Assembly (NCBI GenBank): GCA_035543375.1
Contig: DASZZF010000002.1
Location: forward strand, 67,202 to 131,201
DNA length: 64,000 bases
From: Candidatus Limnocylindria bacterium
GTDB taxonomy: Bacteria; Chloroflexota; Limnocylindria; P2-11E
Reading direction: 5' to 3'
Each line of letters opens with the position of its first letter. The stretch's first letter is position 1. The notes under the pieces were generated by a model. The model was given only the letters and a program-made list of their open reading frames with translations, was not told where the DNA came from and did not search any database. Below are positions 46,035 through 56,248 of this stretch, in pieces. A program made the translations under genes and the position numbers.

Positions 46035-46925
46035 CTACACGCCGTCCGCTGTCACGCGGACCGACTGCGCGATGAGGATCCCACCGATGACGACCGCTCC
46101 GCCAAGCACCTGCGGCAGCTGGAGCGATTCACCGATCAGCAGCCACGCGGCGATCGCCGCGACGACCGGCTCGCTCGTCGCGGTCAGGCCGACGCGCGCG
46201 GCGGGGATCAGCCGCACGGCGGCGACGGTGAACAGGTACGGGATCACCGTCGCGATCACGACGACCCCGAAAACGAGAAGCCCGATCTCGCCGGTCACGC
46301 TCGACCACGGCATCGCCCAGAGCGGTCGAACGATGGCCCAAGCCAGCAGCGCGCCGCCGAAGCCCCAGGTGAGCAGGGTCCAGGTGGAATAGCGGACGAC
46401 GAGCCGCTCCGCGACCAGGAAGTACACCGCGAAGATGAACGCGTCCACCGCCGCGAGGAGCGCGCCCAACGCATTCAGCTGCCGGAGCTCGGCGTCGTAC
46501 GCTCCGACGACGAGATAGCAGCCGGTGAGCGTCACCGCCGCGGCGAGCCAGAGCTGCGGCCCCACACGGCGACCGCGGGTCCGCCAGTACACGAGGATGA
46601 GCAGCGGCGCGGTGTACTCGATCACCAGCGCGACCCCGAGGGGAATGCGCTGGATCGCCTCGTAATAGATGAGCTGCACGCCGAACACGCCGAAGAGCGC
46701 GAACAGCCCGACGAGTGGTAGGTCGGCGCGCTGCACCCGAAGGTCCGCGCGCCGGAAGGCGAGCGTGATCGCGAGGAAGGCGAGAAAGCCGAAGAGGATC
46801 CGCCACTCGGCGAGCACGGAGGGGTCGATGCCGAGCGCGAACGCACGCTTCGCGATGACGCCGCCGACCCCGTAGAAGGCCGCGCCACCGACCGCGAACA
46901 GGTAGCCGAGCGCGATGCGGCTCAG
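46035..46925 (-). CDS. EamA/DMT-family transporter
   Basis: Ten-TM DMT pattern. The first helix (SRIALGYLFAVGGAAFYGVGGVIAKRAF) lies upstream of the track ORF start (GTG 46817) in an open frame that has no ATG/GTG/TTG. CTG 46923-46925 overlaps the nadE TGA. Confidence 0.85.
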   Translation of the reverse strand: MSRIALGYLFAVGGAAFYGVGGVIAKRAFALGIDPSVLAEWRILFGFLAFLAITLAFRRADLRVQRADLPLVGLFALFGVFGVQLIYYEAIQRIPLGVALVIEYTAPLLILVYWRTRGRRVGPQLWLAAAVTLTGCYLVVGAYDAELRQLNALGALLAAVDAFIFAVYFLVAERLVVRYSTWTLLTWGFGGALLAWAIVRPLWAMPWSSVTGEIGLLVFGVVVIATVIPYLFTVAAVRLIPAARVGLTATSEPVVAAIAAWLLIGESLQLPQVLGGAVVIGGILIAQSVRVTADGV

Positions 46926-47788
46926 TCGGCTTCCCAGTCACGGGGATAGAGGAAATCGTGCCCAATGGTGCGGAGGCTCACCTTGGCGATGAGCGGCGGC
47001 ACGCGCTTGAAGTGGTTCACCCGGACCCGCTCCCGGATGCGCGCGATGAGTGCCTGGTCAAAGCCGGCTGAGGCGAGGTCGCGCGGCTGGACCCTTCGAT
47101 CGACCAGGTGATAGAGGATGAGATCCGCGTCGGCGTAGCTGAAGCCGAGCTCGGCCTCGTCGGTTTGCCCGGCCCACAGATCGGCAGTCGGCGCCTTCTG
47201 GATGACCCCGCACGGGACGCCCAGATGCACGGCGAGCTCGCGCAATTGCGTCTTGTAGAGGTCACCGACGGGGTTGAGCGCGCAGGCGAGATCCCCGAAC
47301 TGCGTGCCGTAGCCGAGCAGCAGCTCGGTCTTGTTTGAGGTGCCGAGCACGAGCCCGTCCGGCCAAGAGCGGTCATATTCGATGCTCTTGCGCTCCCGGG
47401 CCATCTTGTTGCCGATCCGCACCCGGTCGGTGCCGAGCAAGCCGCTGAAGTAGGCATCGACCTGCGCGGTGATCGGGACCTCTTCGAGCCGGATACCGAA
47501 GGCCCGCGCGACGGCGAGCGCGTCGCGGTGGGAGCTTTCGCTCGAGGTGCGGTACGGAGTGAACAGGCCGAGGACCTGCGCCGGCCCGAGGGCCTCGGCC
47601 GCGAGCGCCGCGACGACCGCGCTGTCGATCCCGCCCGAGATGCCGAGGACGAGCCGCCGGTGGCCGGTCTTCACCGTCTCGTTGCGCAGGAACGAGATCA
47701 GCATCTTGCGCACGAGGACCAGGTCGATCCGCAGCGGGGACAGGTCGCCCACCGCCATCCGGATCGCCGCACGCTCGGGATCGATCAC
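46922..47788 (-). CDS. nadE: NAD+ synthetase (synthetase domain only)
   Basis: PP-loop LGISGGIDSAVV. 288 aa. GTGA overlap with the upstream CN-hydrolase gene. Confidence 0.95.
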   Translation of the reverse strand: MIDPERAAIRMAVGDLSPLRIDLVLVRKMLISFLRNETVKTGHRRLVLGISGGIDSAVVAALAAEALGPAQVLGLFTPYRTSSESSHRDALAVARAFGIRLEEVPITAQVDAYFSGLLGTDRVRIGNKMARERKSIEYDRSWPDGLVLGTSNKTELLLGYGTQFGDLACALNPVGDLYKTQLRELAVHLGVPCGVIQKAPTADLWAGQTDEAELGFSYADADLILYHLVDRRVQPRDLASAGFDQALIARIRERVRVNHFKRVPPLIAKVSLRTIGHDFLYPRDWEAD

Positions 47789-48639
47789 GGCGCGACCTTG
47801 ATCCCCATGCGCTCCGCCAGGGCCCGGAAGACCAGATCCGGACGCTCGTCGCGCAGCAGCGGGTTGCGGGCCCGTTCGCGCGCGACGAGGGCCGGGTCGA
47901 TCTCCGCAATGACGAGCTCTTCCTCGAACTCCTTCGCCCGGGCGACGACCGTGCCATCCGGCGCGACGACCTCGGACCCGCCCCAGAAGCCGACGCCGTC
48001 CTCGTGACCGACCCGATTCGCGAACGCCACGTACACCGTGAGGTATTGGGCATAGAAACGATCCATCGACCGGCAGGATGCCGCGGTGCCGAGGTCTCCG
48101 CCCTCAGCGACCCCGCGCCCGGGGCTCGAGGCGGGCGCCAGGATCACGCTGGCCCCCGCGATCGCGTACAGGTATGGAACGGAGAGATGCCAGAGATCCT
48201 CGCAGATCGCGAGGCCCGCGGTGCCAACGGCGCTCTCGAACGTCTCGAACGCATCACCGGGCCCGAAGTAGCGGCCGTCGTCGAAGATCCCATACGTCGG
48301 CAGGTACACCTTGCGGTGCACGTGACGCAACGCGCCGCCCGACCAGTAGCCCTGTGCGATGTGCAGCTTCGCGTCCTTCGATCGCTCGACGAAGCCCGCG
48401 ACGACGTCGATGTCGCGCGATGCACGGGCGATCGGCGCCAGGACCGGATCGTCGGCAGAGCACGCGACGTCCGCGGCGAGGTCCTTCAGGTAGTAACCGG
48501 TGAGGGACAGCTCCGGGAACACGACCAGGCGTGCCTCCGCCGCCCGCGCCCGGTCGACCCACTCCCGATGCATCTCGACATTCCGTTTGACCGCGCCGAG
48601 CGCGGGCGAGCATTGGGCGATCGCGACCCGCACGCTCAT
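47785..48639 (-). CDS. carbon-nitrogen hydrolase (nitrilase superfamily), a likely glutaminase partner of NadE
   Basis: VVFPELSLTGY...HRKVYLP...LAICEDLW catalytic E-K-C triad context. Confidence 0.9.
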   Translation of the reverse strand: MSVRVAIAQCSPALGAVKRNVEMHREWVDRARAAEARLVVFPELSLTGYYLKDLAADVACSADDPVLAPIARASRDIDVVAGFVERSKDAKLHIAQGYWSGGALRHVHRKVYLPTYGIFDDGRYFGPGDAFETFESAVGTAGLAICEDLWHLSVPYLYAIAGASVILAPASSPGRGVAEGGDLGTAASCRSMDRFYAQYLTVYVAFANRVGHEDGVGFWGGSEVVAPDGTVVARAKEFEEELVIAEIDPALVARERARNPLLRDERPDLVFRALAERMGIKVAP

Positions 48640-49070
48640 GAGCCGCGGAAGGTCCCGACGCGGTTGGCGTACTCGTTCGCGAGGGCAAGCGCGCGACGCT
48701 CATCGGCGGCCTCGGCCCAGATGTTGAACAACCAGTACCCGTCCGCGACGTACCCGTAGAGCGGCTCGCCGTCCGCGAGCAGCTGCGGGAATAGATCCTT
48801 GCTGAAATCGAAGGCCTCACCAACCGGATAACGCTCCAGCAGCCGCGGCTCGATGACGTAGATGCCGGTGTTGATCATGTCCGAGAACATTTCGCCCCAC
48901 GCGAGATATTGCAGCGTGACGACCGCGTCGGCCATGTCGTGCGACTTCAGCAGATCGAAAATGTGGCCGAGGCAGGGCCGGTTGACGATCGCCACCATCG
49001 GCTTGGGCCGGTTGATCGTGAGCGGCCGGAGGCGGCTACCCTCGCCGCCGGCCATGACGACAGCCTGCAT
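48636..49070 (-). pseudogene. nucleotidyltransferase (mannose-1-P guanylyltransferase-like) remnant with an in-frame internal deletion and truncated C-terminus
   Basis: N-terminal MAGGEGSRLRPLTINRPKPMV...VVTLQYL joins directly to WGEMFSDMINTGIYVIEP...GEPLYGYVADGYW. From memory, these blocks are about 110 residues apart in intact family members. Confidence 0.5.
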
Positions 49071-55197: not shown

Positions 55198-55665
55198 CTA
55201 CGGCATGACGGACGCGATCGGTCGCGTATCGCGGGCGAGCTCGGCGAGCGTCATGCCGTCGAGCGCCAGCGCGATGCTGGACTGCAGCTTGAGCCAGACG
55301 AGCCGCGTGCCGCAGCCCTGCTCGCGCACGCAGTTGAGGACCGGGTCGCCTTCGGCGGTGCAGATCTGCGGCTCGATCGGACCTTCGAGCGCGCGCACGA
55401 TGTCGCCGGCGGTGATCTGCCCGGGCTCCCGGGCGAGCGTGTAGCCGCCCCCGGCGCCGCGCTTGCCGATCACGAGGCCGGACTTGCGGAGTACCGCGAC
55501 GAGCTGCTCGAGGTAGGCCCCCGGCAGCTGTTCGCGCTCCGCCACGGCGTGCAGGGAGACGCTGCCGCCTCCGTAATGACGTGCCAGATCGACCATCAGG
55601 CGCATCCCATACTCGCCCCGGGTGGAGACGTGGAACGCGGCGGTGGTCGTCTGATTTCCGAGCAC
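55198..55665 (-). CDS. Rrf2-family transcriptional regulator (IscR/SufR-type position)
   Basis: STRGEYGMRLMVDLA...GLVIGKRGAGGGYTLA, plus three Cys (C..CVREQGC) in the sensor region. Start at GTG 55663-55665. Confidence 0.85.
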   Translation of the reverse strand: MLGNQTTTAAFHVSTRGEYGMRLMVDLARHYGGGSVSLHAVAEREQLPGAYLEQLVAVLRKSGLVIGKRGAGGGYTLAREPGQITAGDIVRALEGPIEPQICTAEGDPVLNCVREQGCGTRLVWLKLQSSIALALDGMTLAELARDTRPIASVMP

Positions 55666-55675
55666 TACGGTCGGA

Positions 55676-55704
55676 ATTCTAGCGAGCCCCGCGCACCCTG
55701 ACAA
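55676..55704 (-). promoter_or_regulatory. sigma-70-type promoter for the Rrf2-suf operon (TTGTCA-17-TAGAAT)
   Basis: On the minus strand: -35 TTGTCA (55704-55699), a 17-nt spacer and -10 TAGAAT (55681-55676). The GTG start is 11 nt after the -10, which implies a leaderless or near-leaderless mRNA. Confidence 0.5.
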
Positions 55705-55711
55705 TCGCCCG

Positions 55712-56248
55712 GTGGCCCTTGGTATCAGGCGTGCGGTGGTCGGGTCGACGAATCCGGCCAAGGTCGCCGCGGTCCGCACGGCGCTCGTCCGGCTGGCCCC
55801 GGCGGCGGAGGTGCGAGCGATCGCTGTGTCATCCGGTATCCCGTCACAACCGTTCGGGGACGCCGTGACGCGGAGCGCGGCCCTCGAGCGCGCGCGGCAG
55901 GCGCTCGGGGCGAGCGACGCCGAGATTGCGTTCGGTCTCGAAGGCGGGGTGGAGCTGGACGCGGGGCGGGTGTGGCTCCTTTCTTGGGTGGCAGCGCTCG
56001 ACCGCGCGGGCCAGACCGGCTATGCGAGCGGCTTGCGGATGCTGCTTCCCCCGTCGCTAGCCGACGGACTACGCGCCGGCGCGGAACTCGGCAGCCTCAT
56101 CGACCGGCTGTTCGGAGTCCGCGACAGCAAGACCCAGAGCGGCGCGATCGGCCTGCTCACCGACGGTGCGGTGTCACGGACCGACGCGTTCGCGGACCTG
56201 GTCGCGATGAGCCTCGCGCCCTGGCTCCATCCCGACCGTTACCGCTAG
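55712..56248 (+). CDS. inosine/xanthosine triphosphatase (YjjX/DUF84 family)
   Basis: VVGSTNPAKVAAV...FGLEGG... pattern, 178 aa. Confidence 0.8.
   Translation: MALGIRRAVVGSTNPAKVAAVRTALVRLAPAAEVRAIAVSSGIPSQPFGDAVTRSAALERARQALGASDAEIAFGLEGGVELDAGRVWLLSWVAALDRAGQTGYASGLRMLLPPSLADGLRAGAELGSLIDRLFGVRDSKTQSGAIGLLTDGAVSRTDAFADLVAMSLAPWLHPDRYR

Follow-up and report, generated by a model that had tools for sequence, protein, structure and literature searches.

At which codon does translation begin when the first transmembrane helix of a protein is encoded upstream of every canonical start codon in its frame? This question is raised by eamA, which encodes a transporter of the drug/metabolite transporter (DMT)/EamA family and follows the NAD+ synthase gene nadE on the minus strand of a 64,000-nucleotide (nt) stretch of contig DASZZF010000002.1 from a Candidatus Limnocylindria bacterium, hereafter called the window. 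Reading of the minus strand confirmed what a sequence-only reading of this DNA had stated, namely that the eamA frame is open upstream to a TGA at 46940-46938 and that the 40 codons preceding GTG 46817 include no in-frame ATG, GTG or TTG. That reading had also recognized in-frame CTGs at 46937 and 46925, and both are present, although they are not the only ones, as a third CTG lies at 46901 inside the first transmembrane helix (TM1). The peptide that it gave for this stretch, SRIALGYLFAVGGAAFYGVGGVIAKRAFALGIDPS, is correct and comprises 35 residues past the CTG, i.e. 36 codons in total.

The 3' end of nadE reads CGT GAC TGG GAA GCC GAC TGA, the stop codon being located at 46924-46922. In the -1 frame of nadE, which is the frame of eamA, the same region reads TGA (46940), CTG (46937), GGA, AGC, CGA, CTG (46925), AGC, CGC, ATC, GCG, CTC, GGC, TAC, CTG, TTC and onwards to GTG (46817). 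As previously proposed, the CTG at 46925-46923 forms CTGA with A 46922, with start and stop sharing TG in a co-directional 4-nt overlap between nadE and the eamA frame. The last 11 codons of nadE (FLYPRDWEAD plus TGA) hold the eamA initiation region, and this C-terminus is near-invariant across 116 loci. Based on the comparative evidence described below, it is probable that translation of eamA starts at a non-canonical CUG within these last codons, most likely at the CUG at 46925-46923 (CUGA). We infer from sequence comparison the use of CUG, the choice of the CUG, and the dependence of initiation on nadE translation. The two candidate codons, 46937 and 46925, are referred to as position 1 and position 2.

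ATG, GTG and TTG represent 5.2% of the in-frame codons in three neighbouring genes, and a run of 40 codons without any of them has a probability of about 0.12. Taken alone, the absence of a canonical start is unremarkable; the weight lies in the in-frame stop that bounds the stretch and in the comparative data.

TM1 as part of the transporter

With regard to the protein family, hmmscan of the 300-amino acid (aa) extended protein showed two matches to Pfam PF00892 (EamA; E 7.3e-33). The first match covers residues 10-144 and profile positions 2-134 of 135, and the second EamA repeat comes after it. An AlphaFold (AF2) model, built on 21 family members (pLDDT 82.7, pTM 0.79), exhibits ten helices (7-34, 39-61, 70-97, 100-120, 127-145, 156-179, 185-203, 216-243, 246-268 and 274-291), in agreement with the hydropathy profile. 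A Foldseek search of this model against the PDB retrieved 5I20 (YddG; E 4e-8, TMq 0.72-0.75) and 7PAF (LicB; TMq 0.76), followed by TPT, CST and SLC35. The model overlays these two ten-helix DMT structures over its full length (290-297 columns, TM-score 0.72-0.76). The predicted protein thus resembles YddG and LicB in its two EamA repeats, its ten transmembrane helices and its fold, but differs from them in sequence, with an identity of just 18-21%, and no NCBIfam equivalog reaches its cutoff. The best NCBIfam matches remain far under the cutoffs (TIGR00950, 88 versus 230 bits; RhtA, 50 versus 354; YddG, 38 versus 300), so that no named equivalog or substrate can be given. A sequence search of the PDB with the family profile gave no match, the relatives being found by the fold search instead. 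On this evidence, eamA encodes a complete ten-helix DMT/EamA transporter, of which TM1, encoded upstream of GTG 46817, is a part, as the sequence-only reading had claimed.

Initiation at GTG 46817 would produce a 260-aa protein with nine helices, without TM1, and would imply that the upstream open frame is accidental. This codon is the first canonical one, and automated callers gave the 260-aa product (P0002) for contigs identical to the window. Nevertheless, such a start is highly improbable, since the upstream codons supply the EamA profile from position 2 onwards and TM1 of the 5+5 inverted-repeat fold. The 40 upstream codons have a G+C content at third positions (GC3) of 0.90, equal to that of the rest of the gene, which bears out the high GC3 noted earlier, whereas GC3 is 0.3-0.7 in the open stretches that precede other genes of the window. 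In 25 distinct loci of a close clade that carry only CTG, codons 5-39 showed a dN/dS of 0.20 (range 0.20-0.22; pS 0.33, pN 0.08). The values for codons 40-298 (0.38-0.54) were obtained with no gap handling, are probably inflated by indels and were not used quantitatively. TM1 is therefore under purifying selection at the protein level in genomes that lack a canonical start. Furthermore, the codon equivalent to GTG 46817 is GTG in just 9 of 112 loci and mostly ATC or ACG in the others, and close orthologues have 300-305 aa; the orthologue comparison that had been suggested consequently speaks against the short form.

In a GC3-based scan of the 48 likely genes of the window, eamA was the sole case of a missing start. 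A second candidate on the minus strand at 55198-56019, whose first canonical codon is preceded by 80 codons with a GC3 of 0.85, was rejected: its translation is that of an Rrf2-type regulator that starts at a normal ATG (MRLMVDLARHYGG...), and the part upstream of this ATG is not protein-like.

The junction across Candidatus Limnocylindria

We analysed by script 123 further loci, taken from metagenome contigs and from GTDB species genomes. The nadE end FLYPRDW(E/D)xD* was present in 116 loci, and eamA follows in the -1 frame in 112 of the 116. The CTGA overlap is kept in 114, and the codon at position 2 is CTG in every locus where nadE ends in TGA. Among 97 distinct junctions, 53 exhibit no canonical start before TM1, 22 exhibit TTG at position 1, and 22 exhibit another canonical codon in the N-terminal segment. 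Between the junction and the GGVIAK anchor, 29 different lengths are found (24 to 82 codons), all of them in frame, and in-frame stops occur only at codon 4. As untranslated spacers would not hold the frame through so many indels, translation has to start at the junction or right beside it. The arrangement is conserved in Candidatus Limnocylindria and ancestral there, and is not a defect of this genome.

This conservation bears on the possibility that the start was lost by mutation from TTG to CTG, leaving a fresh pseudogene, or that the C arose as an error of sequencing or assembly. TTG is indeed present at the position of 46937 in the nearest relatives (89% and 78% identity), and a single transition, silent in nadE, would be sufficient. 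However, CTG is the majority state of the clade (82 of 108 unique loci), which rules out the base error considered in the sequence-only reading. Two 100%-identical contigs, separately assembled from SRR12277199 and SRR12277200, carry the same sequence including the CTG, which therefore is not a one-off assembly error. As the gene is intact, and as TM1 is under purifying selection in the lineages with CTG only, a lost start or an error is hardly credible.

Lineages in which eamA is detached from nadE provide natural controls. In L097, about 900 nt are inserted between the two genes, and an ATG (MSRRAAFGYLF) is found at the equivalent of position 2. In L118, the upstream neighbour of eamA is a different open reading frame (ORF), with which the eamA ATG overlaps as TGATG, and in L022 and L038 an out-of-frame spacer with GTGs separates the genes, and eamA has a GTG start. 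Judging from these sequences, eamA seems to take a canonical ATG or GTG start when it is detached from nadE, and this switch is the sole, indirect hint of coupling to nadE. The MGSG... start of the P0081/L118 lineage was considered as a relic of position 1 and was discarded, as it is the ATG of the TGATG overlap with the other ORF.

The constant -1 frame could also suggest programmed -1 frameshifting of ribosomes at the 3' end of nadE, giving a NadE-EamA fusion with no need for initiation. The N-terminus of ten-helix DMT proteins is cytoplasmic, which makes such a fusion topologically possible, and the nadE stop is closely preceded by an element resembling a Shine-Dalgarno (SD) sequence. Against this, no X XXY YYZ slippery heptamer is present in GACTGGGAAGCCGACTGA (GAC TGG GAA GCC GAC TGA). 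In the window, the codon immediately preceding 46937 is a TGA in the eamA frame, and six loci have a further one at codon 4; with these stops, a shift could take place at the last nadE codon alone, where tRNA-Asp is unable to re-pair on CGA. No fusion of NadE and EamA was observed among the 407 homologues, and no downstream structure was supported. RNAalifold on 57 junctions gave just an upstream 5-bp hairpin, UUCCU/GGGAA (-2.2 kcal/mol), with no compensatory pair, and an Rfam scan of 46700-47100 gave no match at E <= 1. This hairpin would pair an anti-SD-like segment with the SD-like element, and the single-sequence fold (z = -1.1) is no better than shuffled sequences. Frameshifting is accordingly exceedingly improbable.

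Another near-cognate codon just before TM1 could serve as the start. Three in-frame ATC codons lie between the TGA and GTG 46817, at 46916, 46856 and 46829, the first of which is three codons past position 2 and precedes TM1. AUC initiates in E. coli at about the low level of CUG (bioRxiv 10.1101/063800). However, ATC 46916 is not conserved, being replaced in relatives by ACG or ACC (Thr) or by an unrelated linker, whereas the junction CTG is conserved, and initiation at this codon is very unlikely.

A sister clade (L019-L082 and L104-L124) exhibits a low-complexity N-terminal extension of 4-58 codons between the junction and TM1 (LGY motif), always in frame. It is rich in P, S, G, T and R (e.g. 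...GAGSTETLSSRRGPPGLGRLGRHPSARGPSVDPAP...) and is probably a disordered cytoplasmic tail. In addition, the same Limnocylindria-type junction is found in three loci titled Candidatus Saccharimonadales (L087, L108) and Candidatus Bathyarchaeia archaeon (L112), with 62-71% identity to the window protein. As these labels of metagenome-assembled genomes (MAGs) name unrelated phyla, binning contamination is likely.

Table 1. Positions in the window of the features discussed in the text
Feature	Coordinates	Strand	Remarks
eamA, DMT/EamA-family transporter, proposed coding sequence	46035..46925	minus	296 codons plus stop at 46037-46035; start set at the CUG of the CUGA overlap, chosen by comparative argument
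nadE, NAD+ synthase, gene upstream of eamA	46922..47788	minus	288 aa; Pfam PF02540, E 8e-68; NCBIfam PRK13980, 295.9 bits versus cutoff of 255
CN-hydrolase, glutaminase half of split NAD synthetase	47785..48639	minus	first link in the chain of 4-nt overlaps
In-frame TGA closing the eamA frame upstream	46938..46940	minus	derived from nadE codons CGT GAC
Position 1, upstream in-frame CTG	46935..46937	minus	12 nt before position 2; CTG in 87 and TTG in 29 of 116 loci
SD-like GGGAAG	46930..46935	minus	from nadE Trp-Glu-Ala (TGG GAA Gcc); 4 nt upstream of position 2
Position 2, CTG overlapping the nadE stop (CTGA)	46923..46925	minus	favoured eamA initiation codon; CTG in 114 and CTA in 2 of 116 loci, the latter being two sister loci with a TAG nadE stop
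TM1 coding sequence	46836..46919	minus	residues 7-34 of the 300-aa reading; helix in the AF2 model; hydropathy peak at residues 10-28
Internal GTG	46815..46817	minus	start according to ORF finders and gene callers (260-aa P0002); judged an internal Val codon

The two CTG codons of the junction

The sequence-only reading had made no choice between the two CTGs. In order to compare them, changes were counted by parsimony on a neighbour-joining tree of 95 loci, and the background codon usage was taken from the same loci (Asp GAT 27.6%, Ala GCT 5.65%, Glu GAA 17%, Tyr TAT 15.5%). All 108 unique loci have C as the first base of position 2, and the tree shows no change there, although T would be expected in 27.6% of the loci; the other wobble sites in the last 20 codons of nadE show 6-26 changes each. 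Pairing with the 16S rRNA tail (anti-SD) was estimated at -4.2 kcal/mol for position 2, through GGGA, at +0.6 kcal/mol for position 1 and at just -1.7 kcal/mol for GTG 46817. The value for position 2 is comparable to those of the canonical coupled starts of the neighbouring genes, -5.5 kcal/mol (nadE) and -4.0 kcal/mol (CN-hydrolase).

A start at position 1 (CTG here, TTG in a quarter of the relatives) would give a 300-aa protein beginning with MGSRLS... and a 16-nt overlap with nadE, and both CTGs may serve post-termination ribosomes that diffuse locally. Several annotations point in this direction. The closest full-length homologues, P0001 (MGIGLS..., 89% identity) and P0003 (MGSRLN..., 78%), are called from a TTG exactly at the equivalent of 46937, as shown by alignment with the DNA of L003-L006; in such loci nadE reads CGC GAT TGG where the window reads CGT GAC TGG, a silent difference. 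Prodigal and PGAP put the eamA start at position 1 where possible, and the NCBI record P0010, which matches L100 (codon CTG), has 301 aa and starts with MGSGLS from the position-1 CTG, so that a CTG start is already implicit in one public annotation. Furthermore, with a start at position 1, position 2 would be an internal Leu codon in which C is preferred in both frames, which would account for its invariance with no special assumption.

The behaviour of position 1 itself argues against this. Among the 108 unique loci, 82 exhibit CTG and 26 exhibit TTG, and the proportion of T (24%) is close to the background use of GAT. The base flipped approximately 20 times on the tree, more than at any other two-fold site nearby, and there is no sign that TTG or CTG matters. 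In addition, 6.1% of the loci have GCT as the Ala codon that separates the two CTGs, which is about the neutral, background frequency; in the eamA frame, GCT creates a TGA (LGS*LS) three codons downstream of position 1. This stop arose six separate times on the tree. Four of the GCT loci (L103, L050, L067 and L109) contain no canonical start before TM1, and in those loci position 2 is therefore the only possible start. The absence of SD-like pairing at position 1, and the ATG of the detached L097 locus at the equivalent of position 2 and not of position 1, are also in disfavour of position 1, which we regard as rather unlikely to be the start.

Other wobble bases of the region are biased as well. 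The wobble base A (46931) of a nadE Glu codon is held as GAA in 86% of the loci versus a background of 17%, and the wobble base T (46946) of a Tyr codon as TAT in 87% versus 15.5%; each reverted just 9-11 times on the tree. This bias against codon usage may reflect selection that keeps the initiation region of eamA weak or free of structure, as GAG would give a perfect GGGAGG SD.

Several observations weigh against initiation at position 2. A synonymous GAT would yield a canonical TTGA at this position, yet TTGA is never seen, and its absence requires the extra assumption of selection for a weak start. If position 1 is the start, another possible explanation of the invariant C is that the site is synonymous in both genes, as Asp GAC in nadE and as Leu CTG in eamA. 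In the two sister loci L086 and L121, the TAG stop of nadE turns position 2 into CTA, and these loci must use position 1, which remains CTG with an open frame, or a downstream canonical codon. All six GCT variants are tip singletons, and may be slightly deleterious instead of neutral. The SD-like element is weak, with the Glu wobble held at A (GGGAAG) and not at G, which would give the perfect GGGAGG. At the junction of the CN-hydrolase gene with nadE, where readable in the same loci, GTGA is found 25 times, ATGA five times, TTGA once and CTGA never, so that this clade does not accept CTG as a start in general. Finally, the organism is uncultured, and initiation of eamA at CUG is argued from comparative evidence.

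Overall, this evidence favours position 2 (the CUGA overlap) over position 1, short of proof. Post-termination ribosomes that use any in-frame xUG within a few nt would fit every locus.

With regard to the mechanism, ribosomes that terminate at the UGA of nadE would initiate anew at position 2, the CUG that overlaps this stop. Alternatively, a 30S subunit held by the weak GGGAAG element could initiate on this CUG. The initiator tRNA would tolerate the first-base mismatch of CUG, as it does for GUG and UUG. In this scheme, eamA would close a chain of 4-nt overlaps between stop and start codons (ATGA, GTGA, CUGA), and low-level synthesis of the transporter would be tied to that of NadE.

The operon, known systems and consequences

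The overlaps of this chain are located at 48636-48639 (ATGA), 47785-47788 (GTGA) and 46922-46925 (CTGA). The window contains six canonical NTGA and three TGATG overlaps, and overlap coupling is frequent in this genome. The CN-hydrolase matches positions 4-255 of the NCBIfam model of glutamine-dependent NAD+ synthase (PRK13981), i.e. its N-terminal half, and NadE matches positions 271-537, its C-terminal half; the two form a split NAD synthetase joined by the GTGA overlap. The ORF upstream of the CN-hydrolase gene (48636-49070, minus strand) encodes just 144 aa with an NTP-transferase-like N-terminus. In the syntenic loci L003 and L005, an 826-aa NTP_transferase/hexapeptide/phosphoglucomutase protein is encoded at the same position, and a large internal deletion may have occurred in the lineage of the window. 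The sister MAGs L098 (~620-660) and L099 (~610-660) exhibit a tandem duplication of about 14 nt (CGAGCTCACGACGTGAT) at the junction of the CN-hydrolase gene and nadE, which parts the upstream stop from the GTG of nadE. An apparent CTGA at this junction in L098 was rejected, as it results from the 14-nt duplication and is out of frame, the true nadE start being GTG.

Termination-reinitiation at -4 overlaps (ATGA, GTGA and TTGA) is well documented and efficient (Huber et al. 2019, PMC6728339; PMC10666635; review PMC12548453). The eamA/nadE pair resembles these cases in being co-directional, in sharing TG, in belonging to an operon chain of overlaps, and in having a weak SD-like element inside the upstream gene. 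It differs in its putative CUG start, which is outside the start codons considered in those surveys, and in the C that is invariant though a silent change would give UUG. In addition, coupling is documented for those overlaps and putative for eamA/nadE.

A conserved non-canonical start that sets low or regulated expression is known for infC (IF3) of E. coli, which uses AUU, as mentioned in PMC3592434. In both cases, a near-cognate start would be kept over many lineages though a one-base change gives a canonical codon, and expression is likely low and tuned. The differences are the mismatch, which is at the first base for CUG and at the third base for AUU, the nature of the product, eamA encoding a membrane transporter with no known feedback loop, and the location of the eamA start, which is embedded in the last codon of nadE, its first base being the nadE wobble base.

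In E. coli, CUG initiates with the initiator tRNA at approximately 1-2% (0.02-3%) of the AUG level, according to measurements on all 64 codons (Hecht et al., bioRxiv 10.1101/063800), and the annotation of model genomes now and then gives CTG as a start codon (bioRxiv 10.1101/063800). In contrast to these reporter measurements and sporadic annotations, the eamA case draws on a comparison of about 100 lineages, with no canonical alternative in 55%. Literature searches on bacterial CUG starts returned mostly eukaryotic work. Reinitiation at non-canonical codons as reported in PMC4648390 was considered as a precedent and was not retained, as it concerns eukaryotic mRNA (Shaker-Kv, 40S scanning, Kozak context). 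In the literature searched, no description was found of the clade-wide pattern, of the invariant CUGA, or of the ambiguity between two sites. The eamA junction has a standard 4-nt overlap layout, with a putative start codon that does not belong to the canonical set; it is a clean natural case and not a new principle.

The consequences for annotation are more immediate. A search of 5.8 billion proteins gave 407 homologues, the best of them from Candidatus Limnocylindria/Chloroflexota MAGs, and their called lengths scatter (249, 254, 265, 274, 278, 292 and 300-305 aa), which is the signature of gene callers seeking a start. Among the 120 best hits of the 407, 57 (within P0002, P0016-P0062 and P0066-P0120) have 249-278 aa and are called from an internal GTG, ATG or TTG; as they have at most 278 aa, they begin inside or after TM1 and miss part or all of it. 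These truncated calls represent a systematic error in annotation, which arises from the non-canonical start. Structural, topological or family analyses of such entries are wrong, and the remedy is to start the protein at the nadE junction. For gene finders, CTGA overlaps in high-GC genomes are worth considering as start sites.

Conserved CUG starts are rarely documented in bacteria. The selection on TM1, the frame-preserving indels, the invariant C and the canonical starts of detached genes suggest that a near-cognate codon at an overlap can be a stable and normal start. The eamA/nadE pair is thereby a natural substrate for studying the strictness of start-codon choice in termination-reinitiation, which bears on the debate on 30S versus 70S scanning (PMC12548453). 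We tentatively propose, as a possibility that is open to doubt, that CUGA is an obligate and selectively maintained initiation site in Candidatus Limnocylindria, the C being kept against the silent UUG because a canonical start would overproduce the transporter. If this is true, termination-reinitiation would naturally occur at a codon outside the AUG/GUG/UUG set, and the first base of the start codon, which is the wobble base of the last nadE codon, would act as a fixed evolutionary setter of the NadE:EamA expression ratio.

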